A stretch of 64,000 nucleotides of DNA from Candidatus Micrarchaeota archaeon. GTDB lineage: Archaea > Micrarchaeota > Micrarchaeia > Anstonellales > Bilamarchaeaceae. The stretch lies in the NCBI GenBank assembly GCA_964490215.1, contig CAZBAM010000001.1:194962-258961 (forward strand), read 5' to 3'. Positions 7,811 to 62,200 of the stretch are shown in pieces. How positions within the stretch are numbered: position 1 is the stretch's first letter; every line of letters begins with the position of its first letter. The translations under genes were made by a program, and so were the position numbers. A model generated the notes under the pieces. The model was not told the DNA's origin and made no database searches. It saw nothing but the letters and a program-made list of their open reading frames with translations.

Positions 7811-8404
7811 ATGGTCAGGATTGACGATATGAAAGAACAGGAGATAAATTCTAGTCTAAAACAAAAAATTTTAGACGACCCCATAAAGCTCGGTTCTCTA
7901 CTAGTAGCAGTAGTTATGCTAATTGTTGCCATCTATTCACAAATTGAGAAATCGAAAGTAGATAACGAAAATTTAGCTTTGAATAAAGAGATATCGGATC
8001 TTAAAAAGCCGTCTATTATTGCACTGGATTATCGTGTTGAAGGAAATACTGCTTCGGAAGTCTTCTATTTTTATGTAACAAATCCATCAGATACAGAATA
8101 TTATGTAGATTTAACTCAAGGAACCTGCAAATCCAATTCTTCATTATTAAGTATATCTGCACCACCGGCAAAAAATAACCAACAAAACACAGTTGTAAGC
8201 GGCGATGAAATAACGCTGCCTTCTAATCCACCCCAAAATAAAATTCCGATACCACCTCACGGTAAAATCCAGATGCGCTGCGGTCCCTTCGATATAAGCA
8301 ATCCAGTTCGAGATTCTCCGATATATTTAACTACATGTATAAAATTTGAAAAAATTGAACAACCAATTTGTGAAGATTTGCAAATCATGGTTTTGAAAAA
8401 ATAG
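7811..8404 (+). CDS. hypothetical membrane-anchored protein in the AT-rich island
   Basis: 197 aa with an N-terminal hydrophobic helix (LGSLLVAVVMLIVAIY); AT-rich codon usage unlike the flanks. Confidence 0.45.
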   Translation: MVRIDDMKEQEINSSLKQKILDDPIKLGSLLVAVVMLIVAIYSQIEKSKVDNENLALNKEISDLKKPSIIALDYRVEGNTASEVFYFYVTNPSDTEYYVDLTQGTCKSNSSLLSISAPPAKNNQQNTVVSGDEITLPSNPPQNKIPIPPHGKIQMRCGPFDISNPVRDSPIYLTTCIKFEKIEQPICEDLQIMVLKK

Positions 8405-8626
8405 GACGGGTTATTTTTAGAAATCTTTGCATATTCCACATGCAATAATCCTACCAGAACCTGCATGGTTATGCGTGTATTGCGTATGAAAACGTAAAGT
8501 TAATAATGATAATAAGTAGTAAACTGTGTTAAAAAGATATAATTTATAAATGTATTCATACTAAGTTACTATGGGGTTGCTTCGAGGGCATGAGACTGCG
8601 GTCGATTAACCGGTAGGAGAGCCCCA

Positions 8627-9388
8627 TTATATTCTAATCATAGGTGGGACTTCATAAGATTCCAATTGAACTCTTGTCCGATTTTTATGAAATAGACAAT
8701 GCACCAGGTCATAATAATCTTCAATTTGTTTAATATGCCGTTCTCTGATACATCCAACGAGCATATCCGAAATTTGGATAGTTTTATGCGTTTTACTACT
8801 TCCATCCGCAATTTCTTTTATATTACACTTGCCAGTGGCAAAAAGTTTTTTCTTTAAACGGCCGCGTTCCAGTAATTTTTTTTCTTCGGGGACATTAAAA
8901 ATGAGCATATGATTACGCCCACGCGAAGTGGAGTATTGAAACATGTGCTTCTGATGGAATACTTGCTGGTCTATTAAAATTTCGAGATTAGGATCCAACG
9001 CATCTCTGGGGTGCTGATGCGCCCAGATATGAAAGAGGTACTGTGCTTCATCTTCTATTCTAAAGACTCGGTCTTTATTATCAGAAGGAGTTGGGAAAAC
9101 AGTATAGTATGCCTCCAGTTCTAATGTGGCAATTTCCCGTAGTTTCTTTTTTAAAAAGTCATCATAAACCTGCAGTCCTGTGCTCCTACACGCGTGTCGA
9201 AATCCCACATATTTAAATTCACCTTCCATAACTTTGTTATAAAGTGTAATAACCTCAGGTGGATCATCTTCTGAAATTGTCAGGATTTTTTTGACCTTGG
9301 GCAAAATCTGTTGGGGCATACTTACCAGGCATAACGCTGCAATTGGTTGAGTATTGCCCGACTCGTCCATTGTAAGCAGTTTAGACAT
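8627..9388 (-). CDS. hypothetical protein in the AT-rich island
   Basis: 253-aa ORF; no motif recognised. Confidence 0.45.
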   Translation of the reverse strand: MSKLLTMDESGNTQPIAALCLVSMPQQILPKVKKILTISEDDPPEVITLYNKVMEGEFKYVGFRHACRSTGLQVYDDFLKKKLREIATLELEAYYTVFPTPSDNKDRVFRIEDEAQYLFHIWAHQHPRDALDPNLEILIDQQVFHQKHMFQYSTSRGRNHMLIFNVPEEKKLLERGRLKKKLFATGKCNIKEIADGSSKTHKTIQISDMLVGCIRERHIKQIEDYYDLVHCLFHKNRTRVQLESYEVPPMIRI

Positions 9389-9571
9389 TTTACACGGTAT
9401 TAAAAGAGAGATTTCAATTTAAATAATCTTCTACCATAATGCATAGTCGTAAGGAAGTGTCAATACAAAAGGCATATTTACGTCAGAAACCCTCGGTTCC
9501 CCGGGCGTTTTTGTTGATTGCCTTGAACCTCCCGCAGACCAGGCAGAATCGGAACGGACAGAAGTGAAAGC

Positions 9572-10477
9572 ATGATGCGCGAGATATCACTTGAGGAAGC
9601 CAAACCAATCTGGGACAGGTTCGTGCCGGAAAAGCTGGTCTGGACGGACGACTGGGACATCCGCGTAGCGTTGTGCAGGGAATACGGAGAAAAACCCCTC
9701 ATCCTCTACGACGGGAAAAACTTCTTCCCCCTGCAATTTGAGCCTGAACACGGCTACTACACCATCCTGGGCGGGACCACGGCGGAGAGGAACTACGTGA
9801 CCTTCGACCAGCAGGTCATGAAGACGACGAAAGACATACCCGAGGACATATATTTCGATTTTTTGGTGGACAGGTTTGAAGGCTGCCTGGAAGGGGCGTG
9901 CCCGCAATTCTTCATAGACCTGGCAGGGATAAACGGCATAGACGATTACATCAAACGCTTTTCCGGGAAGCATCAGAAGAATTTCAGGAGAACGATAAAG
10001 CAGTTCGGGGAATATGAATTCGTGAAGCAGGGGACGCTCGAGGAAATGGGCCACATGAACAAGATAACGTTCGGGGAAAAATCCGATTTCGCGACCGAGA
10101 ACAGGGCGTGCTATGAGATTCTGGACAGGGACCCGCGGACGGAGTACTGGTCCATAGTCAAGGGCGGGAAAAAAATCCTGATAATCCAGTATTTCTTCTA
10201 CGGCCGCACCATGTCGGTCTGTGTCTGGGGCGTGGATGAGGCATACGGCGAAACGCTGAAGGTCGCGTTGGCAGAAGGGATAAAGCTCGCCAAAAGCAGG
10301 GGCTGCACGAGAATAGATTATGCCCCGACATATTCCAGCTGGAAGTTCCTTTACCGGCTGGATACAGCGCCACTCTGGAGGTATAAGAGGGGCAACATCC
10401 CGGATTCGGTAGATACGGCTGAATACGGAGTTCCGGCGGATGAAAGGGCAAGGCTCAAGGCAGAAGGGCGGCTATGA
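9572..10477 (+). CDS. putative GNAT-fold acyltransferase (FemAB/CelD-like); weak call
   Basis: 301 aa; loose resemblance to Acetyltransf_6-type proteins only. Confidence 0.3.
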   Translation: MMREISLEEAKPIWDRFVPEKLVWTDDWDIRVALCREYGEKPLILYDGKNFFPLQFEPEHGYYTILGGTTAERNYVTFDQQVMKTTKDIPEDIYFDFLVDRFEGCLEGACPQFFIDLAGINGIDDYIKRFSGKHQKNFRRTIKQFGEYEFVKQGTLEEMGHMNKITFGEKSDFATENRACYEILDRDPRTEYWSIVKGGKKILIIQYFFYGRTMSVCVWGVDEAYGETLKVALAEGIKLAKSRGCTRIDYAPTYSSWKFLYRLDTAPLWRYKRGNIPDSVDTAEYGVPADERARLKAEGRL

Positions 10478-16670: not shown

Positions 16671-16777
16671 GGCGCATATTCGCGCCTGCGGCTTTTAAGC
16701 CATTGCGTGGGCAGGTGAACAAGATTGATAAAAAGGTTTAAATCATGTATGAACACAGCGTTATTGGGAGTGAAACA

Positions 16778-17638
16778 ATGGCTGCTGAAAGAAGGGTTCT
16801 TGAACGCTGCGCAGTGGGGGACAGGATACTGCTGGGTTTTGCCAAGCACAACTACGAGCCTGCCGTTGAGCACATTAAGAAGATGGCAGGTGGTAGCGCC
16901 CGCAACCTGGAACTGCTGTTCGCCAGGAGGGTGGATGGCTCATCATCGCGAACTGTCTATGATTATGCCACTGGAAAGAGTACGGCGGTAGAACGGCTCC
17001 GTGGCGACGGGAGTTTCATACTGCTCAGGTACATGCCGCACAGAGGATACACCTCGGCAGCGCCGCCTTCCCCGGCCGAAGTCCTGGGGCCTGCGTTCGA
17101 CCTCGGCGAGAGCTTGCAGGGGGAGGGGCTCCGCATCTTCTATAACATGGGCAACAGGCCGGCAGGAGAATGGTTCGAAGTTGCCGAGGCCAGGCTGAAT
17201 GCAGATACAAAACTGATGTATGGCATGTATTATTTTGATTGCGTAAATCTGCTCCGTGTGATGGAAGAAGGGTCACGCCCGTTTGAAGCAGGAGGCGCCC
17301 GCTTCATCAGGAATGCGGTCAGTGAAGGGGCGTATTACAATTCAGGAGGGAACAGAGCGACAAGCTGCGATGACAACTGGGAGCTGGCGCAGAGGGGCCT
17401 GACCGCCCGGATTGTGAACTCCCTGAATGATATGAGGGAACACCAAGACGGCGTGCGCTTGTCACGAAGACTGGGAAGAGAGGGCATGGCGGTGCAGGGG
17501 CCAGGCGACTTCTTGGACGACACCTTAATCTCAGGGGTCCTGCTGGTGTTGAAGGCACAGGGGGAGCACCTGCATATCACTCCGGCCATCGTGCCCTACG
17601 GGCCGTACATAAACGGCTTGCTGGCTACGGTGAGATAG
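16778..17638 (+). CDS. uncharacterised paralog family, member 1
   Basis: SD-like GGGAGTGA 6 nt before the ATG; similar to the next two genes. Confidence 0.6.
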   Translation: MAAERRVLERCAVGDRILLGFAKHNYEPAVEHIKKMAGGSARNLELLFARRVDGSSSRTVYDYATGKSTAVERLRGDGSFILLRYMPHRGYTSAAPPSPAEVLGPAFDLGESLQGEGLRIFYNMGNRPAGEWFEVAEARLNADTKLMYGMYYFDCVNLLRVMEEGSRPFEAGGARFIRNAVSEGAYYNSGGNRATSCDDNWELAQRGLTARIVNSLNDMREHQDGVRLSRRLGREGMAVQGPGDFLDDTLISGVLLVLKAQGEHLHITPAIVPYGPYINGLLATVR

Positions 17639-17686
17639 GCTGCGCGCACAACGTTCATGAGCATAACGTATGATGGGAGTGAAACA

Positions 17687-18586
17687 ATGATAACTGCCAG
17701 GGAGAGACGACTGCTTTCTTACAGCAAAAAAGGGGACAGGATAGGATTCAGCTGCATTAGCTCGTTCTGCAACGAACCGCTCCTGGAACACGTGCGGAGG
17801 ATGGCGGACGGCGTGGCGCCCAACCTGCGGCTGCTGTCAGCCGTTGGGATTGACGGCAGCGGCACGACCAGACCCATCATAAAGCAGCACTGGTACGGAA
17901 TGAGAATGCGCCAGCCGCATCCGGGTGAAAGGATTTTCGTTGGACTGGAATGCACGGCTGACAGGGTCAGACCAAACGGCCTGTTGGACCCGGTCTTTGA
18001 CCTGTCCGAAGCGGTATTAGCCTTCGGAACGTCATCAGACGCCAGAATCTACTATCGCACCGGCGAGCCGACCACGCTGTACGACGTTGCCGGGGTTCGG
18101 CTGAAGCTTGCGATGAAAGTCAGTTACAGTTATGACATCACATACGACCTGACCGGAATCTATTACCTGGATTGCACGAAGATCCTCAACGCGATAAAAG
18201 AACTGTCGCTACCAGCCGAATTCGGAGGGAAACCTTACGTAAGGGAGTGGATAATGAAGGCGGCGTATTACATCCAGGAAAGGCGGGAGAGGCGGAAGAT
18301 TCTTTCCAATAGTGCGTCTGACTGGAGTGACGCGCAGAAAGGGATGGCCGTAAGTACGGCCTGGTTCCTGAACTCCGCAAACGGGTGGAATGGAGGGGTC
18401 AGGTTGTCAGGCTGGCTGAGAGGCGAGGATGAGTGGGGATGGGAACATTGTGGCAATGGGGATAGTGTTGCACTCGCATTCATTCTGGACAGGTTGAAAA
18501 CGGATGACTGGATATACGTCATTCCAAGCGACCCTTCCGGAAGCCACACGGCCGAAATCATTCGGTTCTTGGACGGGATGAAGTAA
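17687..18586 (+). CDS. uncharacterised paralog family, member 2
   Basis: 16-nt start context TGGGAGTGAAACAATG identical to member 1; shared motifs GDRI, APNL, YYLDCTKIL. Confidence 0.6.
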   Translation: MITARERRLLSYSKKGDRIGFSCISSFCNEPLLEHVRRMADGVAPNLRLLSAVGIDGSGTTRPIIKQHWYGMRMRQPHPGERIFVGLECTADRVRPNGLLDPVFDLSEAVLAFGTSSDARIYYRTGEPTTLYDVAGVRLKLAMKVSYSYDITYDLTGIYYLDCTKILNAIKELSLPAEFGGKPYVREWIMKAAYYIQERRERRKILSNSASDWSDAQKGMAVSTAWFLNSANGWNGGVRLSGWLRGEDEWGWEHCGNGDSVALAFILDRLKTDDWIYVIPSDPSGSHTAEIIRFLDGMK

Positions 18587-18644
18587 GCAACAGGAACGAA
18601 AACGCCGGCAGTGGATACACACGCCGGCGATGGAGGATGAGAAC

Positions 18645-19496
18645 ATGGCTGACAGGATATTGCTTCAATGCAGCAAAAAAAATGACGAGATAGCAGTCGG
18701 ATTTAAACGGGACGTGCGAAACAGCAGGCCAATCCTGGACCACATCAGGAAGCTGGTGAATGGGGCGGCACCGAACCTGACGGTGAAGTGTGCCTTTGAG
18801 ATAGATGGCCGAGCCGATACATCCTACGACTATGTTACCAGGAAAACCACGCCGTGCCCGGATGCCATGGTTGGAGGGAGCTTCATGCTGCTTGCATGCA
18901 CAGCGGACGGAATCAAGCCTTCAGAACTGCTGCAGCCGGTGTATGACTTCTGCGGATGCCTGGATAAATCCCCGTCCATCTGGTATTCTCCGGTGGGCAC
19001 AGCATCCAAGGGAAAATACGAGATATCGGAGGCGCGATTGGAATATCTGCCGCTTCCCGGAGAATTCAGCAGCCAAGCCGGCCTCCCCGGAACGTATTAC
19101 TTGGACAGCACGAAGATGCTTAGGGCCATCGAGAGACTGACGCGACAGCCGATGGACGGCGGCAATGGCGAGATAAGGGGCATGGTTGAGGTGGACGCGT
19201 ATCGCTTCCATAAGAAATGGGAGTTTCAAACCCCCGAACTGAACTGGCGCCTTGCCCAGAGCGGGCTGGTCTCAAAAATCATCTGCAATATGCGGAAGGA
19301 CACGCCTTGGAAGATTAAGACGTCAGGACAACTGAGACCGAACAACCCCGTCACCGACTTGATAGACGAAGTGAAGATGGGAATCATCTACATCAATCTC
19401 CTGAGAGAGCTGAAGGGCGACGACAGCATACACCTGGTTACCGCAGGGCTCCCGGTGTGGGTCTACATAAACAACTACCTGACGAAGGGGCATTAA
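18645..19496 (+). CDS. uncharacterised paralog family, member 3
   Basis: GGAGGATGAGAACATG start context; shares the APNL and YYLDSTKML motifs. Confidence 0.55.
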   Translation: MADRILLQCSKKNDEIAVGFKRDVRNSRPILDHIRKLVNGAAPNLTVKCAFEIDGRADTSYDYVTRKTTPCPDAMVGGSFMLLACTADGIKPSELLQPVYDFCGCLDKSPSIWYSPVGTASKGKYEISEARLEYLPLPGEFSSQAGLPGTYYLDSTKMLRAIERLTRQPMDGGNGEIRGMVEVDAYRFHKKWEFQTPELNWRLAQSGLVSKIICNMRKDTPWKIKTSGQLRPNNPVTDLIDEVKMGIIYINLLRELKGDDSIHLVTAGLPVWVYINNYLTKGH

Positions 19497-24589: not shown

Positions 24590-27112
24590 CTATCCGCCGT
24601 AAGGCACCTTGTTCGTGCCTCCGTTCGCAGTCGTCCATTTTCTCATCTTGTCCAGGCGCTTCCAGGAAGGGCAGAAGCTGTTCGGGCACTTGTCCCTCAG
24701 GTAATAGTAGGCAGCCATCCTTGACGCCCCGCGGTCCTTGTTCGCGTCGCTTTCGCAATTGCGGACATAATCAACGAAATCAGTGTAACCTTTGTAGCCG
24801 TAGCAGTTGTCAAGCTGGCCTGACACGCATCCTTTTCCATTCGGATTCTGGGCGCAGTAAGCGGCAGTCGTGCTCCAGCTTATGTAGTAATCCCCCACCC
24901 AGTTGTTCACGTCGCTGCCATCAGACGGCCAGGTGCCTGCGTAAAGGTTTGCGGCAATGTATGCTATGAACACCTGGTCCTTGTCAGTGCCTGCCTCCCA
25001 GTCCAGCAGGTTGACACCCCTGTCGTTATGGTATTTGCGGACTTTCTCCGCGGCAATGCGCATCTTCTCAGCGAGTTTCATCGTGCCCACGCACGCCGAG
25101 TCTGCCGCGTTGAATGGGTTGAATGACGTCGGATTGCATGCCTTTGCCAGGTCAAGCCTGATGTCCAGCCCGCGGCGCAGGGCGTCGTTGTATATCGCCA
25201 CGTGGGCCGGGTCGCCGGTCTTGCCGGCCGGCTGGTACGAGTCTGGCCAGTAGTCAATGGGCGGCTCAAGGCTCTGCATCAGGCCCAGGCCGCACCAGCG
25301 CCATGATGGCTGGCTGGTGCCTGAATTTGGCGCATTTGCCAGTGGGCACTGTGCCGCAGGGTCGCTCATGCTGTTGAAACCCGTGGAGTAGCATTCGTCA
25401 TTCGTGCTGTCGTCCGTGTCAAAGCATCCGGTGGTGCCTGGATTGGCTTTGCAGACCTTGGCTGCCTGGCAGGGCTTGAAATTGCTCTCTCCGGCGGCGA
25501 TTGCGCGCACGTAAGACGGGTCAAGGCTGAACTGGCTTGCGAAATAATCAAGCTCAGGGAAGCTGTCGCAGTATGTCAGGGGAACCGACGCCGTACCGAA
25601 TTTGAACGGCGGGTCGCCCAGCTTCTCTGATATGCACGCATCGCAGCGCACCAGGGTGTCGGTGGCCTTTTCCATCTCCGGCTGCCCAGGGCTGAGGAAG
25701 TCGTTGTCGGTGAATGACATCTGATTCACCTGGAATGCCGCGTTGAAGTTCTCATTGCAGGAGCCGGACGCCTGGTCCGGGAAGCGGATGAACGTTCCAG
25801 GCTGTGGTGATATGTCAGTGTCCTGCGCAGTATTGATGCTCTGCTCTGTGTAGGCCTGGCAGCCGCCGTACCACGAGCTTATGCGCTCGTTGTTCTTCCC
25901 GAGGGCGCAGTCAGTGCACGCGAGAGGGTTGCCGAGGCTGGACGCGGTGCTGGTGAAGGAGTATGGCGCGACGCCGATGACGCCTGCCTGCGGAAGGACC
26001 TGGGAATACGTGGCGATGAAGGCCGAATAGCCGTTAATGAGGCTGGACTCGTCCCAGGGGCAGGTGCCGCTGGCGTCGGTGCCGCCTGCGTCAAAAAGCA
26101 CGTATGGGATTATGGATGGCTTGCCGCCTTCCCTATGAAGCGCGTATTCCGAGAATTCCACTGCGGCGTTCCATGCCGAAGTCGGGTCGCAGGAACCGCT
26201 GAAGTCCAGGTAGCGGGAGTCTATGCCATATGCGATGAGGTCAACCTGCTTTGAGATGGCGCTCGGCTTGCAGCTGGCAGGGTCAGTGGGTTTCAGGTTG
26301 CATGCCGCGGGGTCATCTACCATGACCGCGTTGAGCGCATCGTAATCCCCGAGCTTCGGCGCGAGCGCGACCTGGCAGTATATTTTCGGCGGGTTGGTTG
26401 AGCGGTCGTTTCTGCACCCGGTGTTTATGGCTTCTATCTGCGCCTTCACCGCCTCGGCCTGGGAAACGTCGTAATTCATCTCGGTGGTGACGACTACGGG
26501 CCCCACGGGCTTGATGGTGAGCCTGCCCGTGGCCACGTCCTGGCCGCCTGTGCCGAGGACGTTGGCGATTTGCAGCGTCTGCGTGGCGTCTATGTTCTCA
26601 CCATCGCTGTAGAGGACATAGACAGGCATCACGCCCTTGTCAAGCAGGCAGACCGCCCTTGACGCGCTCGGAAGCGGGTAGGGCATGGTCTTGCTGCCCG
26701 CGAGCCATTGCACTGCCATGCCCAGGCGGGTGTTGCAGTAGCCGTTGGCGTCCCCGAAATCCGCGAACGACGGCCCCTGGCCCAGCCTGAAATAATTCAG
26801 GGTGAGGTCCTTGCCGTATCCGCCAGCTCCTATTGACTGGAACTTCTCCGGCTTGCAGTCCTTGTCAAAATAGCAGTAGCCGCCAACGTAGGAGGTCAGC
26901 CAGGGGAAGAACTCGGTGCCCTTCTTGCACACCATGCAGACGCAATTCGCCTCCAGGCAGTTCTGCGTCAGGGCTGAGTCCGATATGGGCACGTTCGCCA
27001 TCTGCTGCACGTAATCGTTGACGTAATACCTGCTGGAAGAGATGTGGTTGAGGCATCCTGCGGCAAGAAGGAACGCCAGCAATGTGATGACCGTCGCAGG
27101 GGCCGCCCTCAT
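24590..27112 (-). CDS. secreted Cys-rich 840-aa protein with a lytic-transglycosylase (SLT/lysozyme-like) domain
   Basis: signal peptide with lipobox-like LAAGC; residues ~515-655 carry YVRAIAAGESNF ... WCGLGLMQ ... AIYNDA (ES / GLMQ / A-YN SLT motifs); about 40 Cys. Confidence 0.5.
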   Translation of the reverse strand: MRAAPATVITLLAFLLAAGCLNHISSSRYYVNDYVQQMANVPISDSALTQNCLEANCVCMVCKKGTEFFPWLTSYVGGYCYFDKDCKPEKFQSIGAGGYGKDLTLNYFRLGQGPSFADFGDANGYCNTRLGMAVQWLAGSKTMPYPLPSASRAVCLLDKGVMPVYVLYSDGENIDATQTLQIANVLGTGGQDVATGRLTIKPVGPVVVTTEMNYDVSQAEAVKAQIEAINTGCRNDRSTNPPKIYCQVALAPKLGDYDALNAVMVDDPAACNLKPTDPASCKPSAISKQVDLIAYGIDSRYLDFSGSCDPTSAWNAAVEFSEYALHREGGKPSIIPYVLFDAGGTDASGTCPWDESSLINGYSAFIATYSQVLPQAGVIGVAPYSFTSTASSLGNPLACTDCALGKNNERISSWYGGCQAYTEQSINTAQDTDISPQPGTFIRFPDQASGSCNENFNAAFQVNQMSFTDNDFLSPGQPEMEKATDTLVRCDACISEKLGDPPFKFGTASVPLTYCDSFPELDYFASQFSLDPSYVRAIAAGESNFKPCQAAKVCKANPGTTGCFDTDDSTNDECYSTGFNSMSDPAAQCPLANAPNSGTSQPSWRWCGLGLMQSLEPPIDYWPDSYQPAGKTGDPAHVAIYNDALRRGLDIRLDLAKACNPTSFNPFNAADSACVGTMKLAEKMRIAAEKVRKYHNDRGVNLLDWEAGTDKDQVFIAYIAANLYAGTWPSDGSDVNNWVGDYYISWSTTAAYCAQNPNGKGCVSGQLDNCYGYKGYTDFVDYVRNCESDANKDRGASRMAAYYYLRDKCPNSFCPSWKRLDKMRKWTTANGGTNKVPYGG

Positions 27113-32116: not shown

Positions 32117-32138
32117 GATATAGACGCGTGTCCGGCGC

Positions 32139-32261
32139 TTTATAAATGTTTATGTTCACAAGGGATATGAAAACTACAAAAACTACAAAAGTTGTAGTTT
32201 AATGTTATAGAAAATAGACGATAGCGAGGTGTATGGTATTGGCGAGGCGCATGGTATTGGC
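32139..32261. promoter_or_regulatory. divergent control region: TATA TTTATAAA (32139-32146), 2x AAACTACAA direct repeat plus 9-bp palindrome AAACTACAA-aag-TTGTAGTTT (32171-32200), 2x ATGGTATTGGC (32233-32261)
   Basis: AT-rich intergenic stretch between the giant gene (-) and the Arch_ATPase gene (+) carrying an operator-like inverted repeat and direct repeats. Confidence 0.45.
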
Positions 32262-32317
32262 TGGGCGCAGGATAAGGGGTGGCAGGGCATGAGACGGCAG
32301 GACAAGGGGTGCGTGGC

Positions 32318-33409
32318 ATGAAGGGGCCGAACCCGTTCGCCTTCCTTGAGGACAACCCAGGGGAAGCGGTCGGAAGGAAATACGAATCAGGGGTGTTTGA
32401 CGCCATGGCGCGGGCGTGCTCGGCAAGGCAGCCGCGGGTGCTGGCAGTCCATGGCGGCCCTGGCACAGGCAAGACCTTCCTGCTGCGCTACTTCAGGCGC
32501 GAGGCAGAGGGGATGGGCATGCTGGCGCCCTATGCAAAGGCCGAGGAGGGCGAGGATGCGGCCGACGTGGCCGGCAGGCTATACCAGGAAACCGCGTCGC
32601 TGCTGGAATTCCGCACGCAGGGAGCAGGTGCACACCCTGGCACCTTTGCCGGACTCGTGGAATCGCTTGGGAAGGGCGGCCAGGGGAAGTATTTCGGCAC
32701 CCTCGTGTTCATAGACGACTTTGACGACGTCAGGAAGGCTGACGAGGCAGCGGCGGAGCTGGTGCGGCTCGCAGCCTCGCTGGAAGGCAGGAGGGCGGTG
32801 GGCTTCGTCCTGGCGTACACGAGGGAGCTGCGGCTTCCCGAAAGCCCGGCCCTTGGCGTCCTCAGGCTCAAGCCCTTTGACGAGCACGACGCCAGGGAGG
32901 CCATAGACAAGGCGCTGGGCGCAGGACCCGGGCCTGGCAAGGGGCCGAAGATGGGCGAGGAGTGCCTCCACAGCGTGATGACGGACACCGGCGGGAACCC
33001 CCGCCTGCTGAAGGCGGTCTGCAGGCACGTCTATGACAGGCTGAAGGACAACGAGAAGATAATAAACAAGGGCCATTACCTCGCCTACCTGCCGTACATA
33101 ATGAACATGCTATCCGGCGAATGGTTCGGCAGGATGTACCAGGCGACGCCTGAGGCTGAGCGGAGGATTCTCGCGGTCATGGCAGGAAACAGCGAGGGGA
33201 TGCACGTGTCGGACATCGCCAGGACGCTCGGCAGGCCGCTCGGCCCCACGACCGCGCTGGTCGGAAGGCTCCTGGACAGGGGGCAGATAACGAGGCTGGA
33301 CAGGGGAAAATACAGGATTTTCGCAGGGCTATACGCGCGCTATGTATTGCAGAGGGGCGAGGGGCGGGCGGAGGAAAAATCCGCGGGCTCCGCGCAGAAA
33401 CGGCGCTGA
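32318..33409 (+). CDS. archaeal-type AAA ATPase (Arch_ATPase/PF01637-like) with a C-terminal wHTH (DUF234-like)
   Basis: Walker A VHGGPGTGKTFLL, Walker B LVFIDDFDDV, C-terminal GKYRIFAGLYARYV; alternative GTG start at 32279. Confidence 0.65.
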   Translation: MKGPNPFAFLEDNPGEAVGRKYESGVFDAMARACSARQPRVLAVHGGPGTGKTFLLRYFRREAEGMGMLAPYAKAEEGEDAADVAGRLYQETASLLEFRTQGAGAHPGTFAGLVESLGKGGQGKYFGTLVFIDDFDDVRKADEAAAELVRLAASLEGRRAVGFVLAYTRELRLPESPALGVLRLKPFDEHDAREAIDKALGAGPGPGKGPKMGEECLHSVMTDTGGNPRLLKAVCRHVYDRLKDNEKIINKGHYLAYLPYIMNMLSGEWFGRMYQATPEAERRILAVMAGNSEGMHVSDIARTLGRPLGPTTALVGRLLDRGQITRLDRGKYRIFAGLYARYVLQRGEGRAEEKSAGSAQKRR

Positions 33410-39687: not shown

Positions 39688-40851
39688 CTACCCACGCCTG
39701 AAGGCGTTGGCTTCCTGCTTCAACGAAGATACTTGCCAGTTATGTTTATAACCAGTAGTGGTTTCTTCTCCACAGGCGTTACTTCCCAGCGTTCCGCCGG
39801 TAGCTCGTTGGAGTATATTTATCGCCGCATTGAGATCCCTGTGCATGGATGCTCCGCAGGGGCAGTCATGCCACCTCTCAGCAAGCGATTTCTTCAGTAC
39901 CAGACCGCAGTTGCTGCACCTCTGCGAGGTGTGGGCCGGATCCACCAGCACGATTTCGCAACCAGCTTCTTCCGCTTTGTAACGAATCATACTGACAAAC
40001 TCTGCCCAACTGCAATCCAGCACGGATTTTGCAAGTAAACCTTTTGCCAGACCGGCAACATTCAGGTTTTCCAGTGCAAGAAAAGAATATGCGCTAACCA
40101 GCCGTCTGCTGGTTTTATGGAGGAAATCACGTCTTCTGTTTGTGAGCCGTTCATAGGCAATTGCAACCCGATGTTTTGCCTTCTGCCTGTTTTTGCTGCC
40201 CTTCTTTTTTCGTGAGAGATGCTGCTGGGTTTCCTTCAGGCACTCTTCTGCCTGCCTGAGATGCCGGGGATTTTCTATGACCTCGCCGTCGCTGAGGCAG
40301 GCAAAGTGCTCCACGCCGAGGTCTAATCCCGCCTCAGGGCCAGTTTTTCTGCAAGGTGCAATCCGTTCCGCTTCAGTAGTGAAAACGGTGAACCACTTCC
40401 CTGAAGGAGATCTTTTGATCGTCAGTGTTTTGACTTCTCCTTGCATTTGCCGGTGCTTCTTGATTGAAATACTTCCTATGCCTGAAAGCTCAAGGCGTTT
40501 GTCCAGCCTGAAACCGAACTGGGGGTAAGTGAATGATTTCATCCGTTCAAGTGGTTTGAAGCGCGGAAACCCGGCCTTCAAGCCTGCCTTCTTTCTGGCA
40601 ATCACGCCCCTGAGGCTTTTTACCAGCCGATCTGCGACGTTCTGGGCTACCTGTGAAAAAAGAGGAGTGTCTTTCGTCTGGAGATAAAGCTGTTTTCTGG
40701 TTGGAAACTTGCTGGTTTCTTCATAATATTTTTTCGTGTATTCCAGAAGGCGGTTCCAGAGCGTTTTGCATTCGTGGAGGCATCCGGACAACTCCCTTTG
40801 CTGGGTTTTTGACGGGTACAGTCGGAACTTCCAGGCCCTTGTTGTCTTCAT
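39688..40851 (-). CDS. tnpB: IS200/IS605-family TnpB (OrfB) RNA-guided nuclease
   Basis: RuvC-like motifs (LDLGVEHFA, ...) and C-terminal zinc finger CSNCG...CPCG; 387 aa. Confidence 0.9.
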   Translation of the reverse strand: MKTTRAWKFRLYPSKTQQRELSGCLHECKTLWNRLLEYTKKYYEETSKFPTRKQLYLQTKDTPLFSQVAQNVADRLVKSLRGVIARKKAGLKAGFPRFKPLERMKSFTYPQFGFRLDKRLELSGIGSISIKKHRQMQGEVKTLTIKRSPSGKWFTVFTTEAERIAPCRKTGPEAGLDLGVEHFACLSDGEVIENPRHLRQAEECLKETQQHLSRKKKGSKNRQKAKHRVAIAYERLTNRRRDFLHKTSRRLVSAYSFLALENLNVAGLAKGLLAKSVLDCSWAEFVSMIRYKAEEAGCEIVLVDPAHTSQRCSNCGLVLKKSLAERWHDCPCGASMHRDLNAAINILQRATGGTLGSNACGEETTTGYKHNWQVSSLKQEANAFRRG

Positions 40852-45097: not shown

Positions 45098-46324
45098 TCA
45101 GATGTACCCAAGCGCCTGCACCGGGTCGAGCTTGGCTGCCTGGCGCGCTGGCAGGTAGCCTGCGAGTATGCCCACCCCGGCTGAGAACAGGAAGACGAAA
45201 GCCACCCACTTCGGCTGTATGAGGTAGGGGACGCCGAACGCCTGCGCCGCCACGAGAATGACGAAGGCGCACAGGAAGCCGAGCACGCCGCCTGCGATGC
45301 CTATGAGCGCGCTCTCCGTAAGGAAAATCAGCTGGATGTCACGGTCGGTGGCGCCCACGGACTTGAGGATGCCGATTTCGCGCACGCGCTCAAGAACCGC
45401 CATGAACATGGTATTGGATATGCCTATGCCGCCGACGACCGTCGCCACCGCTGTTATGGCCAGCAGGAGCTGGCCCAGGAGGTCCAGGACGCTGCCCACG
45501 GTCTTCTTTATGTAGTCGGAGGTTATCACGCTGAAGTCCTTCTCGTCCAGCGTCACGCGGTGGTTGGCTGCTATCTTGTGCTCTATGGCATCCTTCACAT
45601 CTTCCATGTTGTATGCCGCGTCAACGTTCAGGTATATGAACGTGACCTCGTTCCTGGCGAGCTGGGTCGTGAAGAGGTCCCTCCCTTCGTCGAAGGGCAG
45701 GATTATGACGCCATTGTCCTGGGATGCGAAGGAGCCGGGGATTTCCTTGAGCGTCCCTACGACCTTGTAGTCCTTGCCGTTTATGGTGAATGTGTTGCCC
45801 ACGTCCAGCTTGTCGTTGCCGAAGAACTTGTTGGCCGCGTCGTAGCCAAGCACGGCCACCCGCCGCTCCGATTCCGTGTAGAGCCTGCCCTTATCCAGCT
45901 GGAAGTAGCTGCTGTACATCTCAAGGCCGCTGGGGTCCATGCCGTAGACCGCCGTCTGTATGCCCTTGGCCCTGAAGCCGACCGAGGCGCGGCCATAGAC
46001 TGTGCGGGCAGTCTCCTTCACGCCCGGGACGCCGGCTATTGAATCCACATCCCGCTGGTAGAGCTTGCCCATCGGCATGCCTGCAGGCCCCAGGTTCGCC
46101 AGGCCGCTGGTACCGCTATCAATGTTGATCGGCACCACGAACATCATGTCGGAGCCGAAGGTGGCGAGGAGGTCATTCACGCTCTGGTTCACGCCTTCGG
46201 TTACCGATGTGATGACGACCATGGCTATGACGCCTATGACGACCCCGATTATCGTGAGCCAGCTCCTCACGTGGCGCGTCCGTAGGTTTTTCACCGCGTA
46301 TGCCGCCGCATCCTGCACGTTCAT
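45098..46324 (-). CDS. ABC transporter permease, FtsX/MacB-like
   Basis: N-terminal TM, periplasmic domain, C-terminal FtsX 3-TM bundle; 408 aa. Confidence 0.75.
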   Translation of the reverse strand: MNVQDAAAYAVKNLRTRHVRSWLTIIGVVIGVIAMVVITSVTEGVNQSVNDLLATFGSDMMFVVPINIDSGTSGLANLGPAGMPMGKLYQRDVDSIAGVPGVKETARTVYGRASVGFRAKGIQTAVYGMDPSGLEMYSSYFQLDKGRLYTESERRVAVLGYDAANKFFGNDKLDVGNTFTINGKDYKVVGTLKEIPGSFASQDNGVIILPFDEGRDLFTTQLARNEVTFIYLNVDAAYNMEDVKDAIEHKIAANHRVTLDEKDFSVITSDYIKKTVGSVLDLLGQLLLAITAVATVVGGIGISNTMFMAVLERVREIGILKSVGATDRDIQLIFLTESALIGIAGGVLGFLCAFVILVAAQAFGVPYLIQPKWVAFVFLFSAGVGILAGYLPARQAAKLDPVQALGYI

Positions 46325-46328
46325 GCCA

Positions 46329-47546
46329 TCACTCGTAACGGAGGGCCTCCACCGCGTCCTGCATGGCTGCCTGCCTCGCAGGCACGTAGCCGGCGACGAT
46401 GCCGACTATGGCCGAGAAGGCCACCGCCCCGAACGCGAACTCAGGGAGTATCACGGCCGGGAAGCCGAGGAGGTTTATGACCAGTATTATGACTGCCGCA
46501 ACTGCGAGCCCGAGAGAGCCGCCTGCCGCGCCTATCAGGGCAGCCTCGGTCAGGAACAGGCCCTCTATGCTGGTTTCTATCATGCCGACCGCCTTGAGTA
46601 TCCCGATTTCCCTCCTTCTTTCAAGGACGGCCATGAACATCGTATTAGCCACGCCGACTGCGCCAACCAGGAGCGATATGCCTGCGATGGCACCCAGGAA
46701 GATGGACAGGAGGGACGTGGTCTGGTCTATCTGCTGGGATATGAATTTCTGCGACAGGACGCTGAAGTCCTTGTTTTCGGCGGTCTTGCGGTGGGCCGCG
46801 AGCAGGATTGACTCCACCTGTTCCGCAGCCTCGTCCACATTCTCGCCCTCCTTTATCACCAGGCGGATGGCCGAGATCTCGTTGTCCGCCATGGAATCGC
46901 CGAGGAGTTCCAGTGCATCGTCAAACGGTATTATTGCAGCGCTGTCGGTCTGGGATACCGTGCCCCCGGATTTTTTCAGTATGCCCACGACCTTGAACCG
47001 CTCGCCGCCCAGGAGGATTATGCTGCCCACTTCGACCTTTTTGTCGAAAAGATTGTCTGCCATATCTGCGCCCACCACCATGGCCCGCCGGTCTGCCGAA
47101 GTGAGGAACCTGCCGCTGCCGATCTCCACGCTTGAGCCGGCCGTCTCCAGGTAGGTGTCCGCCTGCACGCCAAATGCTGATATGGACTTGGAGCTGTCCT
47201 TGTACTCTGCGTTGAAACGGCCCATCAGCACCTTCGTGCCGGTCTCTATTGACGCGACCTTCATTACGCGGGCGTAATCCCGCTCGTACAGCTTGCCAGC
47301 GGTTGGGACGAACTGCGTGCTGCCATAGGCTGCGGCCTTGGTCACATCGGCCGGGAATATTACCAGGGTGTTGGGGCCGAAGCTCTTCAGCTGGTCCTCA
47401 ACGCTGTTCTTCAGGCCCTGGACCATGCCCACGAGTATCACCATGGAGGTTATGCCCACGATGATGCCCAGGATTGTGAGCCAGGAACGGAGGCTGCGGC
47501 TGCGCATGGAATGCAGCGCATATGCCAGCGCATCGGTCAGTCTCAT
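46329..47546 (-). CDS. ABC transporter permease, FtsX/MacB-like (paralog)
   Basis: same layout; ATG at 47544-47546 (MRLTDALAYALH) overlaps the upstream stop (ATGA). Confidence 0.75.
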   Translation of the reverse strand: MRLTDALAYALHSMRSRSLRSWLTILGIIVGITSMVILVGMVQGLKNSVEDQLKSFGPNTLVIFPADVTKAAAYGSTQFVPTAGKLYERDYARVMKVASIETGTKVLMGRFNAEYKDSSKSISAFGVQADTYLETAGSSVEIGSGRFLTSADRRAMVVGADMADNLFDKKVEVGSIILLGGERFKVVGILKKSGGTVSQTDSAAIIPFDDALELLGDSMADNEISAIRLVIKEGENVDEAAEQVESILLAAHRKTAENKDFSVLSQKFISQQIDQTTSLLSIFLGAIAGISLLVGAVGVANTMFMAVLERRREIGILKAVGMIETSIEGLFLTEAALIGAAGGSLGLAVAAVIILVINLLGFPAVILPEFAFGAVAFSAIVGIVAGYVPARQAAMQDAVEALRYE

Positions 47547-49093
47547 CCTTTCTTCCTCAGCCTGAAGTACCACACCGCGGCCGCGGCGATTGCCACTAAG
47601 CCAACCAGCAGGTATAGCGTGCCGCTGCCGTTGGACGGCACCCCCTTGACCGAAGCGGCTTGGTCTATGGTTCTGGTCACCCACGCACCTGACGCGTCCC
47701 TGTAGCGCACGTTTATGGATATCGGGTAGTCGCCCGGACCGGAGTCCACCTTGACCTTGAACTGCACGGTGGAGAAGTCGTCCTTGGCCAGCGAGCCGAT
47801 GTACTGCCTTGGCGTGATGTCCAGGGACTCAAACGCCGGCGAGCTTATGCCCACGTCCACGTTGTCTATGCCGTATGAGCCCACGTTGGACACGAGCACG
47901 GATATCGTGTGCTCCACGCCGGTGGTGAGCGGGCTGGGCTTGGAGTCAAGGTAAACGCTGACGTCGGCGTCAGAGCCGATGGTCAGCGGGACGTCAAGCT
48001 GCTGCTCCTTGCGGATGTCCCTCTCAATCCAGCTTATCTTCGCGCCAACCCGGTTGAGGCCTGGCGTGAGGTCGTTATAGACCGCGGCTGAGACGGTTTT
48101 CTTCTCGCCTGCCGCCAGGTCGCCTATGACCACCTCGTTCCTGTCCCTGAGGCGCATGGACGTGTTCGTGAATGACAGGCGGACGTCGGAAAGCGCCTGG
48201 CCGTTGTTCGTCACTTCCAGTGAGAGCGTGCCGTCCGTTCTGGTCACGAGCGGCTGGAGCTGGTTGAAGCGCAGGTCCAGCACCTCGTTCTTGACCGTGA
48301 GGTGCAGGGTGCTGGCGTCAGAATGCGGAAGCCCCAGCTCGTCCTCGTAGTTCATGGTGAATGATACGCCGGTCGCTCCGTCGCTGGCGTTCCTGGCGTC
48401 AAGCGTCAGGTTAACTACCTTGGACGCGAGCACGTCGCCCACGTAGAGTTCGTTCAGGCCGTAAAAGGCTACGGTGGAGGCAGAAGTCAGGGCATGTTCC
48501 ATGCACATCTGAGTATCTGTGGCGTTCAGGCCGTAAAACGCGACGGTGGAGGTGGATGGGATGCTGATGCGCAGGTTCCTGAGGGGCCCGCCGTTGTTGG
48601 ACACGGTGAGCGCCACCGCCTCTATGCCGCCTATGACCTGCTTGTCAGTGGAAAGCGAAAGTATGGGCGCGTTGAGCACGGTGACCGGGATGGTGGTGCT
48701 CCTGGAGAACGTGTCATAGCCGCCGCCGTCGGACCGGTCTGACACGCCAGTAAGCCGCACTTCCACGGAATATATGGAACTGGTCGCGGTTGCGCCCACT
48801 CTGAACGGCAGGGAGACGCGCGTCGTTCCGCCCGGCTCTATGCTGCCGATGAACTGCTGGCCCGTGACGGTTATCTCTGGCGGGGAGAATATCTCCATGG
48901 ACACCGAGCTGACCGACTTCACGGTTACGCCAGTGACGAGCGGGTTGGATATGTCAAGCGTTATGACGCCGCTCGCCCCGGGCTTGAACGAAGCCTGGGA
49001 CACCGAGAAACTTGATACCGAAAGCCCTGCTGACGCCATGCCAGCGAGCAGCACCAAAGCAAACATAACCCCGAACGCATTATCCATTTTCAT
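47543..49093 (-). CDS. cell-surface protein (signal peptide, Ig/CARDB-like repeats, C-terminal TM anchor)
   Basis: N-terminal signal peptide, C-terminal LYLLVGLVAIAAAAVWYFRLRKKG anchor, internal STVAFYGLN duplication; embedded in the ABC operon. Confidence 0.6.
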   Translation of the reverse strand: MKMDNAFGVMFALVLLAGMASAGLSVSSFSVSQASFKPGASGVITLDISNPLVTGVTVKSVSSVSMEIFSPPEITVTGQQFIGSIEPGGTTRVSLPFRVGATATSSIYSVEVRLTGVSDRSDGGGYDTFSRSTTIPVTVLNAPILSLSTDKQVIGGIEAVALTVSNNGGPLRNLRISIPSTSTVAFYGLNATDTQMCMEHALTSASTVAFYGLNELYVGDVLASKVVNLTLDARNASDGATGVSFTMNYEDELGLPHSDASTLHLTVKNEVLDLRFNQLQPLVTRTDGTLSLEVTNNGQALSDVRLSFTNTSMRLRDRNEVVIGDLAAGEKKTVSAAVYNDLTPGLNRVGAKISWIERDIRKEQQLDVPLTIGSDADVSVYLDSKPSPLTTGVEHTISVLVSNVGSYGIDNVDVGISSPAFESLDITPRQYIGSLAKDDFSTVQFKVKVDSGPGDYPISINVRYRDASGAWVTRTIDQAASVKGVPSNGSGTLYLLVGLVAIAAAAVWYFRLRKKG

Positions 49094-59223: not shown

Positions 59224-62200
59224 TCATTTCAGCTCCACATAGACAGCCACGATGTTGCTGGTGCCGGTGTAGTTGCCAAGGGTGAACGGCACCTGGCCCA
59301 GGTAATCGTAGGTGCCGTAAACGTCGCTGGCGCTCGCATTCGCCTTCACCACCCAGACGGTCGTCTGGTTGTAGGCGTTGCTGTACTGGGTGCCGACGCC
59401 GGTCGTGTCCCACAGTATGCCGGTGCGGAACGTCGTGTTCGTCGCAGTGGAGTTGGCTATGGGCACGAAGTCTATCGCCCTGCCGAACACCGTGTAGTTT
59501 TCCGTCTGCCTCGGGGTGCTGTTGTCAATGGAATACGTCTTGTTGATGTTGTCCTGGTAGGAGGTGGTGTTGAATGCCACGTCAAGCTCAACGAAATCGT
59601 TCGTCGTAGTGCCGTTTGACGTGTTCCTGCCGATGGCCTGGAGCTGGGACCAGTGTATGTTTGAATCGTAGTCTGCCATGTAGACGTTGAGCGCGGAGCC
59701 GTTCCAGGAGTAGGCATAGGGCGTGGAGTTGGTGCCGCCAAGGAATATGGTCCTGTTGACGTTCCCGAATATGCGCGTCCACATGGACGTGCATGCGAAC
59801 TCGCAGCCGAGGTGGCCGTTCTCGGTCCAGCCCGCGAACGAGTCGCACGAGTCCAGCGTGCCGTTGTTCCGCACGCCGAGGTTCTGGACGTCAAGGACGG
59901 AGTTGTAGCAGGCGCGGTTGGAGGTAGTGTTGGTGCTGTTGCTGGCGGAGTCAAGCCGCAGGCCGGTGTTGGTATTGTTGGTGATGTTGTTGCGGGTGAA
60001 GTTGTTGAGGGTGGAGTTGATGACGTACACGCCGTAGGCGTTGAGGAAGACCAGGTTGCTGATGAAGGTGTTGTTGTCCGAACGCGAAGTCAGGAAGATG
60101 CCACTGGCAGTGTTGTTGTAGGCGGAATTGTTGGTGTAGCTGTTGTTGGAACTGGAGTTAAGGTAGAAGCCGTAGCGGGGGTTGTCGTAGGCGGAGTTGT
60201 TGGCGAGGGTGTTGTTGTTGGAGTTGGTGACGAAAAAGCCATCATAGATGCTGTTGTAGGCGCTGTTGCTGGTGAGGTTGTTGCTGCTGGAGTAGCTGAT
60301 GTTGAAGCCGCTGAGGGAGTTGTTGTATGCGAGGTTGCCGGTGAAGTTGTTGTCTGAGCTGGAGGCGAGCAGGAAGCCGTTGTATGTATTGTTGTAGGCC
60401 GAATTGTTGGCGATGCTGATTCGGGAAACGTAGCCGAGGTTGAAGCCGTGCTGGAGGTTGTTGTAGGCGGTGTTGTTGGTGAGGGTGTTGTCGTTTGAAG
60501 CGAGGTTGAAGCCATGCTGGGAGTTGTTGTAGGCTGTATTGTTGGCGAGGGTGTTGTTGGAGCCGGATGACAGGATGAAGCCATCCGCGGAATTACTGTA
60601 GACGGTGTTGTTGGTGAGGGTGTTGTTGTAGCTGGAATAGAGGTAGAATCCCTGGGAATTGTTATATGCGGTGTTGTTGGCCAGGAGGTTGTATCCTGAA
60701 GTCTCAAGGTCGAAGCCGACGGAGGTGTTGTAGGCGGTGTTGTTGGTGATGTTGTTGCTGTTGCTGTGGTAGATGTAGAAGGCCGGGTGGCCGTTGTCAT
60801 GCACGATGTTGCCCTCAAGGCGGTTGTTGGGGCTGGACACGAGGTAGATCACCGGGTCATAGGTATTGTAGGCGAAGTTGTAGGTAATGTTGCTGTTGGA
60901 GCCGGAGAAAAGGCAGATGGCTGACTGTAGGTTGTCGAAGGTAGTGTTGCTGAGGTTGATATTGCCGTCAACGCTGTTGTTGCTGATGAGATTGCCGGAA
61001 CTGAGGTTCGTGGCGATGCCGCACAGGGTGCTGTTGAAGACAAGGTTGTTGAGGAACTGGCTGTAGTTGGACTGGTAGGCGTAGATGCCGTAGCTGTAGT
61101 AGGATATGTTGGAGCAGTTCCTCACCGTGACGTTGGTGAGGGAGCCGTTGAGCACGATGCCATAGGTCGTGCCTGCGGTGCCGTTGTTTGTGATGCTGAA
61201 GCCGGCGCAGTCAAATATGACGTTGGATGCAGCTATCTTGACGCACGCCGTGTCAGTCAGCGGCGATGCGTCGTTGGGCGCGCCGGTGTAGTTGCCTGGC
61301 TGGGTGTAGGTGCCGCTGGAGGGTATGACGGGACAGTTGGAAACGTTTACCTGGATGGTGACGTTGTTGGAGCTGTTGGTCGGGCCGACCAGCCATGCGG
61401 ACAGCGGCGTCACCGTGCACTGCCAGGTGTCGCCCACATGGAGCTCCTGGGAGACCATGACCGGGCTGTTGTTGAAGAGCAGGCTTATCTGCGCCGCGGA
61501 CAGGGCCCGCGGATAGACCTGGATTTCGCCTACCGAACCGTTGAGCGGATATGAAGCGTTGGCAAGGGCTCCTATGTAAAGCGGGCCGTTGATTGTCGTG
61601 TTCAGGCCGGTCCAGCTGACGTTCTCGGTCACCTGCTCCACTGCCGTGTTGTTCCAGGACTGGTTGCTGAATACTGCGCTCCAGATTGCCTGTGCCATGA
61701 CCCGGGCACCGGCCTGGTTTGGATGAAGGGCGTCGGGGTAGGAGTAAAGCGGGTTAAAGCTGCAGTTGTCAGCCGCGACAAGCGGCGTCCAGGTGTCCAC
61801 GAACGGGATGCTGTTGTTGGTGGTGAAATTCCTCAGCCAGGCGTTCACTTCCTTTATTTCCGTACAGTACGGGTTATAGGGCGTGATTGTCATCATTATC
61901 ATGTGGTCGGTCTTGTTGACTGAGCGGTTGTACAGCTGCTGGAGGTTGGATTCCACCTCGGATGCGTTATCGCCCAGGACGAGGTCTACCACGCCGCACA
62001 TGGATATGACCGAGGAGCCGTTGGGGACCTCGCTGCCATACAGGTCGTATGAGCCAGGGAAGCGTGCTGACGGCCCCAGAAGGTCGTCGCAAATTAGTGC
62101 GCCCCATCCCTTGTTGTAGTGGAACGGCTCGTATCCTCCCTGGACCAGGGGCGTCTTGTTCATGCTCTCTGAACCGGCATATGTCCAAGCATAGTGGTCC

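Follow-up and report, generated by a model that had tools for sequence, protein, structure and literature searches.

p840, a cysteine-rich exported protein of Micrarchaeota with a diverged lytic transglycosylase-like (SLT/GH23) domain

We analysed a stretch of 64,000 nucleotides from a Candidatus Micrarchaeota archaeon (GenBank assembly GCA_964490215.1, contig CAZBAM010000001.1, positions 194,962 to 258,961 of the forward strand; the whole of it is referred to here as the window), in which an original prediction, made from the letters alone, had placed a lytic-transglycosylase (SLT, lysozyme-like) domain inside a Cys-rich secreted archaeal protein. The protein, here called p840, is encoded on the minus strand by an open reading frame (ORF) of the expected 840 amino acids. 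Its C-terminal half is, with high confidence on sequence grounds, homologous to the GH23/SLT family, and the domain is likely to be catalytically competent. The N-terminal half, which had been overlooked, is a glycoside-hydrolase-like TIM barrel in the structural model. Overall, we favour, with moderate confidence, a reading of p840 as a two-domain, glycan-cleaving protein that is tethered to the cell surface, stabilised by disulfides and directed at bacterial peptidoglycan. The archaeal origin of the DNA is borne out by its gene content (TFIIB, both Topo VI subunits and archease) and by the homologues of p840, all named ones among which come from metagenome-assembled genomes (MAGs) of Micrarchaeota or other DPANN archaea.

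A diverged GH23 domain in the C-terminal half of p840

Full-length p840 returned no match when it was compared with Pfam, NCBIfam and the PDB sequences. When the domain was excised, SLT (PF01464) was the sole Pfam family returned (E 0.16, 12 bits), and manual deletion of a Cys-rich insert improved this match to E 0.0063 and 16.5 bits, the gathering score of the family being 21.3 bits. Considerably more can be read from the relatives of p840. We found 55 homologues, nearly all full length and from Micrarchaeota/DPANN MAGs throughout; all conservation counts given here refer to a 54-sequence alignment with 29–86% identity to p840. Nine of the 54 family members individually match Pfam SLT with E ≤0.01 (best E 1.1e-5), and SLT is the sole Pfam family returned for those scanned. 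Two members exceed the gathering score (P0048, 25.4 bits; P0054, 22.3 bits), as do two more distant relatives (P0055, 33.3 bits; P0176, 32.9 bits), and the match of P0055 is complete, running from profile position 6 to 111 of 117. A profile built from residues 495–840 of p840 aligned with P0055 in hhalign with 98.5% probability and an E-value of 2e-15, and eight of the ten matches that the same profile retrieved from the PDB sequences were GH23 proteins, namely EtgA (E 0.0088), an EscI-EtgA fusion, a goose-type lysozyme (E 0.09) and five MltE chains. A word-indexed homologue search with a domain-only profile yielded just five proteins and added little. The membership of p840 in the SLT family is therefore based on transitive, family-level evidence and on predicted structure, not on its own direct score; Pfam misses the domain because two large insertions lie between the motifs. 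By the SLT-profile scan that had been proposed as a check, p840 alone is sub-threshold, which formally speaks for rejection, while the scores of the family members, the link to P0055 and the PDB profile search uphold the domain. It lies where it had been expected, at 25147–25570 (residues 515–656), but runs past the lower of these boundaries to about residue 730.

As shown in Table 1, motifs I and II of the family-1 signatures occur at the places cited in the original prediction, and both are conserved. The predicted catalytic residue E542 is kept in 53 of 54 members, the sole exception being Asp, and S543 in 49; in motif II, G610 is kept in 53 members, M612 in 44 and Q613 in 50. The near-invariance of E542, S543 and GLMQ down to ~29% identity points to purifying selection on the active site. 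The catalytic Glu also aligns as foreseen: in the profile comparison with the PDB, the Glu-Ser pair of p840 falls on the catalytic Glu-Ser of EtgA, MltE (E64) and goose-type lysozyme (E73), and a weak hhalign alignment places E542 on the ARQES motif of Slt70 (E505 of the precursor, E478 of the mature protein). Motif III had been assigned wrongly. The sequence proposed for it, HVAIYNDA, is present, but N642 is found in only 7 and Y641 in 23 of the 54 members, the flanking columns are mostly gaps, and the segment is unaligned with P0055. Instead, AYIAANLYAGTW aligns in hhalign on LLAYNAGPGG of P0055, with a register that is uncertain by one residue, and here Y724 is kept in 46 and G726 in 53 members. 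This segment, which includes AYIAANLYAG (residues 717–726), lies beyond the span originally flagged.

The Cys-rich insertion between motifs I and II was described correctly. The spacing from the Glu to GLMQ is 68 residues in p840 and 46–102 (median 69) in the family, as against 15 in Slt70; the insertion mostly holds 4–6 Cys across the family, and the nearly invariant D584 sits in it. From GLMQ to the motif III equivalent the spacing is 114 residues in p840 and 58 in Slt70. In the C-terminal extension, conservation is 91% or higher for each of Cys 753, 762, 770, 786, 809 and 814.

Structure prediction, likewise proposed as a check, bears the domain out. The domain-only model is confident overall (predicted local distance difference test, pLDDT, 86.4), with lower values (56–60) in the Cys-rich insertion. 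In the full-length model E542 and S543 end a helix (residues 532–543), which is followed by two strands forming a β-hairpin (550–554 and 604–609) and then by GLMQ; the Cys-rich insertion lies in the loop between the two strands. The order of helix, hairpin and GLMQ in the model is the arrangement of the lysozyme fold. When the PDB was searched with the domain-only model in Foldseek, 14 of the top 15 matches were MltE or MltF, with probabilities of 0.5–0.9 and target-normalised template modelling (TM) scores of ~0.45–0.55 for MltE and ~0.25 for the longer MltF. In a viral library, LT_GEWL proteins of phages, endolysins and the PRD1 transglycosylase came out on top, with probabilities of up to 0.99.

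Table 1. Features of the p840 locus (window coordinates; residue numbers refer to p840)
Feature	Position	Strand	Basis
p840 gene, ORF of 840 amino acids, Cys-rich exported protein	24590..27112	-	ORF list; identical protein P0001; homologues; AlphaFold model
Signal peptide with lipobox-like LAAG-C20 at its end	27053..27112	-	hydrophobic N-terminus and conservation of C20
N-terminal Cys cluster and (β/α)8 barrel, residues ~52-445	25778..26959	-	model, Foldseek
Diverged SLT/GH23 lysozyme-like domain, residues ~518-730	24923..25561	-	Pfam, family profile, hhalign, PDB profile search, Foldseek
Motif I, YVRAIAAGESNF, residues 534-545, with predicted catalytic E542 (25487-25489) and S543	25478..25513	-	conservation, profile alignments
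Cys-rich insertion between motifs I and II, residues 546-603	25304..25477	-	spacing relative to Slt70; loop in model
Motif II, RWCGLGLMQ, residues 605-613	25274..25300	-	conservation; aligned with GFGLMQ of goose-type lysozyme
HVAIYNDA, residues 637-644, unconserved, inside variable insertion	25181..25204	-	alignment columns
Motif III equivalent, AYIAANLYAGTW, residues 717-728, degenerate AYNAG	24929..24964	-	hhalign to P0055
C-terminal Cys-rich helical extension, residues 731-840	24593..24922	-	helices 737-829 in model; also aligned in P0055
p1617, conserved upstream partner, 1617 amino acids	27263..32116	-	ORF list, topology, synteny
AAA ATPase (AAA_16/AAA_22), divergently transcribed	32279..33409	+	Pfam

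Export signal, N-terminal barrel and M23-bearing relatives

The predicted lipobox and the Cys-rich, exported character of p840 were both borne out. By hydrophobicity, p840 has a single transmembrane-like stretch (residues 1–26), and LAAGC occupies residues 16–20 behind the hydrophobic N-terminus. C20 is kept in 96% of the family and the residue preceding it is always G; the strict lipobox pattern ([LVI..][AST..][GAS]-C) is found in 36 of the 54 members and G-C in essentially all full-length ones. The sequence fits a lipobox, and lipid modification of the protein may be presumed from it. The Cys count is 36, somewhat below the ~40 originally given, and 31 of the 36 are conserved at 80% or more, a pattern as would be expected for an extracellular disulfide-rich protein. 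The AlphaFold model of the full-length protein has a pLDDT of 87 and a predicted TM-score of 0.86.

In that model strands and helices alternate over residues 109–422. Pfam gave no match for this region in the full-length scan. The best Foldseek matches of the barrel in the PDB were glycoside hydrolases of the clan GH-A type, from GH2, GH5, GH26 and GH140, with E-values of 1e-5 to 1e-3, at 8–14% identity and target-normalised TM-scores of 0.3–0.5. At the end of the strand 206–211 lies E211 (26480–26482), which is invariant in the family, and D341, which follows the strand 333–339, is at least 90% conserved.

A sub-family of relatives (P0055, P0172 and P0176) joins a p840-type core to a C-terminal M23 peptidoglycan endopeptidase. 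P0055 is 23% identical to p840 over 96% of the query, and the barrel, SLT domain and C-terminal extension are common to both. Unlike P0055 and P0176, which are from Micrarchaeia, p840 has no M23 domain; it also has neither the canonical AYNAG nor the full-length Pfam SLT match of P0055. In L006 2900–9839 (GCA_041660725.1, contig JBAZVU010000021.1) the gene for P0055 comes immediately after genes for a T2SSE ATPase and two T2SSF platform proteins in a type IV pilus-type cluster, whereas p840 sits beside p1617. Downstream of P0055 there are three small ORFs (99, 86 and 174 amino acids), which are possible pilins. The labels that NCBI gives to two of the distant relatives are those of an SLT-domain protein and an M23 protein. 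In a tblastn search of P0055 against plasmids only the M23 part was matched. The pairing of SLT with M23 also occurs in bacterial and phage lysins.

Conserved neighbourhood of p840 and other features of the window

The gene directly upstream of p840 encodes p1617, which has a predicted signal or transmembrane segment (residues 1–29), an ectodomain of ~220 amino acids with six Cys, a second transmembrane segment (249–276) and a remainder of ~1340 amino acids that is presumably cytoplasmic and ends in a C-terminal CC..C..C cluster. Pfam, NCBIfam and the PDB held no meaningful relative of it. Among the 30 confirmed loci from GTDB species representatives, all of which are Micrarchaeota and derive from groundwater, sediment and soil, a p1617 homologue lies directly upstream of the p840 homologue on the same strand in 29, and the AAA ATPase adjoins the p1617 homologue in 23; p1617 is directly upstream on the same strand in L001 and L003 as well. 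Topo VI B and A follow directly downstream of p840. Their adjacency is looser than that of the trio, which persists where the Topo VI neighbour has been lost. We considered whether the AAA ATPase is Orc1/Cdc6, which would make this an origin neighbourhood, and found neither a PDB or NCBIfam match nor a match to the Cdc6 C-terminal domain. Since the ATPase is not a recognisable Orc1/Cdc6, we rejected the origin of replication as an explanation of the synteny. It may be that p1617 and the AAA ATPase are more novel than the SLT domain itself.

In the intergenic region between p1617 and the ATPase gene (32117–32278) there are short direct repeats (two copies of CGCCAATACCAT; TTTTGTAG, also repeated) as well as an inverted repeat of small size (CTACAA..TTGTAG); these may be shared regulatory elements of the two divergent genes. 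A terminator-like hairpin between p1617 and p840 was supported neither by a pattern scan nor by folding (z = -1.6) and was discarded. One MAG carries two tandem full-length paralogues of p840 behind the p1617 homologue (L010 5995–11176; 852 and 878 amino acids, ~38–39% identity to p840). In this locus and in L026 a spacer of ~1.3 kb, with only a low-complexity ORF in it, separates p1617 from the first copy; the ORF (~385 amino acids) is unrelated to p840 and probably spurious.

Those members of the p840 family that carry a name are assigned to Anstonellales and Bilamarchaeaceae. When 1.84 billion representatives were searched exhaustively with a profile, only 310 related clusters came up, including stand-alone C-terminal-domain proteins and longer variants, and the best 150 of these 310 matches all have the p840 family's own domains. 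The p840 locus is part of the core chromosome and not of a mobile element, and the window also encodes ArgRS, PurL and PGK in addition to the TFIIB and archease genes. The sole mobile-element marker seen in the window is a minus-strand IS605-type OrfB/TnpB gene at 39688–40851 (HTH_OrfB_IS605, OrfB_IS605 and Cas12f1-like TNB domains).

Several other features of the window were recorded. Positions 8001–10000 form a low-GC island (0.41, compared with ~0.59 elsewhere) that may be foreign DNA and whose ORFs (7811–8404, 8627–9388 and 9572–10477) have no Pfam match. At 16745–19496 on the plus strand, three consecutive ORFs of ~290–310 amino acids with similar N-termini (..SETM..ERR.L..) and no Pfam match form an apparent tandem paralogue array. 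Two adjoining MacB/FtsX-type permease genes, followed by a gene for a secreted CARDB/NPCBM_assoc protein of 516 amino acids, occupy 45098–49093 of the minus strand and are a possible export or surface module. A protein of 1289 amino acids encoded at 59224–63093, also on the minus strand, combines Laminin_G_3, a GDSL/SGNH esterase and right-handed β-helix/NosD repeats and looks polysaccharide-acting; SGNH esterases include O-acetyl-peptidoglycan esterases. The region 60001–64000 shows a very strong GC skew (+0.28 to +0.33), which coincides with this large β-helix gene and with a Thr/Pro-rich ORF (63180–63977).

Substrate, role and relation to known systems

In the reading that we favour, exported p840 would be anchored on the external side of the membrane by its G-C lipobox, and E542, at the end of its helix, would act as the single acid/base catalyst, with GLMQ and the degenerate Tyr-x-Gly lining the substrate groove. 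The two large insertions, one of them Cys-rich and located in the β-hairpin loop, may reshape the substrate-binding surface, and the TIM barrel with its invariant E211 probably adds a second glycan-binding or glycan-cleaving activity. By a modest balance of the evidence, the substrate of the GH23 domain would be bacterial peptidoglycan, most likely its β-1,4 backbone of N-acetylmuramic acid and N-acetylglucosamine (MurNAc-GlcNAc), met outside the archaeal cell, whether in the wall of a bacterium that serves as partner or prey or in debris of bacterial walls; murein production by the archaeon itself is not expected. Synteny suggests that p840 probably cooperates with p1617 and the AAA ATPase. 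We point to peptidoglycan because the sequence and fold neighbours of the domain are all murein enzymes, because relatives carry M23 fusions, and because murein is described as ‘normally absent in Archaea’ (PMC8204110). The original prediction had likewise pointed to an attack on bacterial peptidoglycan; the M23 fusions and the pilus-cluster linkage of relatives make such an attack a reasonable, putative role.

A number of observations weigh against a peptidoglycan-cleaving p840. The protein alone is never significant for SLT (at most 16.5 bits when excised, nothing at full length), the hhalign comparison of the domain profile with E. coli Slt70 alone (E 0.2) is too weak to count, and the Foldseek E-values of the domain model are weak (0.1 in the PDB, 0.01 in the viral library, none ≤0.001). 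The motif III equivalent lacks the canonical Asn and is reduced to Y-x-G, and the groove is remodelled, which weakens the peptidoglycan inference. GH23 also includes chitinases, and sequence cannot separate a lytic transglycosylase (LT), a goose-type hydrolase and a GH23 chitinase in the case of p840. The barrel does not show the Asn-Glu and β-7 Glu signature of clan GH-A, having T210-E211 and D341 instead (strand numbering inferred from the model), and for this reason we call it GH-like only and do not file it in that clan. The M23 fusion belongs to a paralogous or distant sub-family and not to p840. Furthermore, p840 belongs to the syntenic core of its lineage, in association with an ATPase and a giant membrane protein, so that a constitutive surface function fits as well as a weapon. 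All cultured Micrarchaeota of which we are aware grow on wall-less archaea and not on bacteria, and no genes for peptidoglycan recycling turned up in the 64-kb window. Anstonellales have been described as having substantial metabolic capacity and as maybe less host-dependent, in a study that mentions no peptidoglycan-related functions (PMC12892359); on this description, grazing on bacterial walls or their debris is as plausible as parasitism.

Four other explanations were weighed. The first, possible though clearly less probable than peptidoglycan, is that the GH23 domain, perhaps together with the barrel, cleaves a non-murein β-1,4-linked N-acetylhexosamine (HexNAc) glycan, such as a chitin-like polymer or the glycocalyx, N-glycans or exopolysaccharide of an archaeal host, and that the surface of an archaeal partner is thereby breached or grazed. 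The degeneracy of motif III and the presence of two large insertions suggest an altered groove, and the barrel resembles general polysaccharide hydrolases (GH5, GH26, GH2 and GH140) and not peptidoglycan-specific families. GH23 contains chitinases, goose-type lysozymes cut chitin oligomers, and the known hosts of Micrarchaeota are archaeal. Host dependency has also been treated with no bacterial host being mentioned (PMC12892359). Against such a substrate, the closest annotated relatives join the same core to M23, a peptidase of peptidoglycan cross-links, the neighbours in sequence and in fold are without exception murein enzymes, and the family was found, in a limited scan, in Anstonellales/Bilamarchaeaceae-type lineages and not in the acidophilic Micrarchaeales with their wall-less hosts.

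The second explanation, which we regard as rather improbable, is a housekeeping, autolysin-like system in which p840 remodels a glycan layer in the envelope of the Micrarchaeota cell itself, for instance when the cell divides or assembles pili, while p1617 and the AAA ATPase control it from the cytoplasm in the manner of FtsEX-type complexes acting on bacterial wall hydrolases. The near-constant presence of p1617 upstream (29/30) and of the ATPase beside it (23/30), the persistence of the trio beyond the Topo VI adjacency, the bitopic layout of p1617, whose Cys-containing ectodomain is small and whose cytoplasmic part is very large, and the position of p840 in the core chromosome and not on a mobile element would all be consistent with this. 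However, we know of no wall polymer in Micrarchaeota that is murein-like or otherwise built of HexNAc, the 64-kb window showed no genes for wall synthesis, and FtsEX is resembled in architecture only, no homology to it being detectable in p1617 or the AAA protein. A non-catalytic role of the SLT-like domain, as a module for glycan binding or adhesion with leftover ancestral residues, is very unlikely: the degenerate motif III and insertions that could occlude the groove, in a region of lower model confidence, would agree with it, but the Glu (53/54, with Asp as the exception), the Ser and GLMQ are near-invariant to ~29% identity. Finally, chance motif matches in an unrelated Cys-rich fold, for which one could cite the absence of a significant direct match of p840 in Pfam, NCBIfam and the PDB sequences and Foldseek E-values above 0.001, are effectively refuted by the convergence on GH23 of the conservation, the above-threshold Pfam matches of members and the E 2e-15 link to a bona fide SLT protein, by a PDB profile search returning mostly GH23 proteins, and by top fold matches dominated by LTs in two libraries.

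One may speculate, with little confidence, that the AAA ATPase, p1617 and p840 form a Micrarchaeota-specific surface apparatus with which metabolically capable and non-acidophilic, Anstonellales-type cells open the peptidoglycan walls of bacterial partners or prey. Such a trio would amount to a cross-domain episymbiosis or predation of an archaeon on bacteria, driven by an enzyme family that is invisible to Pfam/CAZy screens; we know of no cultured DPANN archaeon for which this has been shown. For most DPANN archaea neither the host nor the lifestyle is known, and exported murein-cleaving enzymes are among the few genomic clues to bacterial rather than archaeal partners. The clue now extends to Micrarchaeota, in a family found almost throughout the lineage sampled and tied to two other conserved genes. 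In p840 there is a concrete, expressible target for asking whether these archaea digest bacterial walls, and a handle for finding their partners.

What appears to be new is a Micrarchaeota-wide, Pfam-cryptic family that combines a lipobox, a TIM barrel and an insert-bearing SLT domain, together with its trio with p1617 and the AAA ATPase. The bacterial-wall idea itself is not new for DPANN archaea: exported GH23/LT proteins of Woese- and Pacearchaeota, with an inferred interaction with bacteria, have already been published (PMC8204110, PMC9723730, PMC11537232), and an extracellular GH23 is mentioned in passing for a MAG of the DPANN order ‘Ca. Norongarragalinales’ (PMC8561730). PMC8204110 describes its LT proteins as specific to Woese- and Pacearchaeota and refers to Rinke et al. 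2013 for a previous account of LT genes in archaea. The p840 family, being cryptic to Pfam, would have been missed by the CAZy/Pfam screens of the earlier DPANN papers, since its two large insertions push the domain below the Pfam threshold, and surveys of this kind under-count such enzymes in deep-branching lineages.

Among characterised proteins, p840 has its best profile and fold matches in the family-1 LT/GH23 enzymes. With E. coli MltE (EmtA) and Slt70, P. aeruginosa MltF and EtgA, a type III secretion system enzyme, it shares a predicted helical lysozyme-like fold, the Glu-Ser at a helix end, the hairpin and GLMQ and, like MltE, it is an apparent lipoprotein. It differs from these enzymes in the extra insertions of ~53 and ~56 residues between the motifs, in a Y-x-G without Asn, in its many conserved disulfide-type Cys, in the fused TIM barrel and Cys-rich C-terminal extension, in its archaeal organism and in its sub-threshold Pfam score. 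With the goose-type lysozymes, which are GH23 hydrolases, the p840 family aligns in motif I (..ES..) and motif II (GFGLMQ), and both are secreted and disulfide-stabilised, although the match is weak (E 0.09); for the extra acidic residue or residues that goose-type lysozymes use for hydrolysis, D584 of the p840 family is only a candidate. A parallel in setting is offered by the LT/GH23 proteins of DPANN archaea (PMC8204110, 2021; Vigneron et al. 2022, PMC9723730), which are likewise exported from a DPANN archaeon and have led to the same ecological inference, namely that bacterial walls, possibly those of hosts, are bound or degraded. However, fam00969 (PMC8204110) comprises extracellular LT proteins of up to ~3000 amino acids from Woese- and Pacearchaeota, whereas p840 has 840 amino acids, is from Micrarchaeota and differs from these giant proteins in its architecture of lipobox, TIM barrel and SLT domain. 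Thus p840 is functionally analogous to the giant LT proteins of fam00969 and not a member of the same family.

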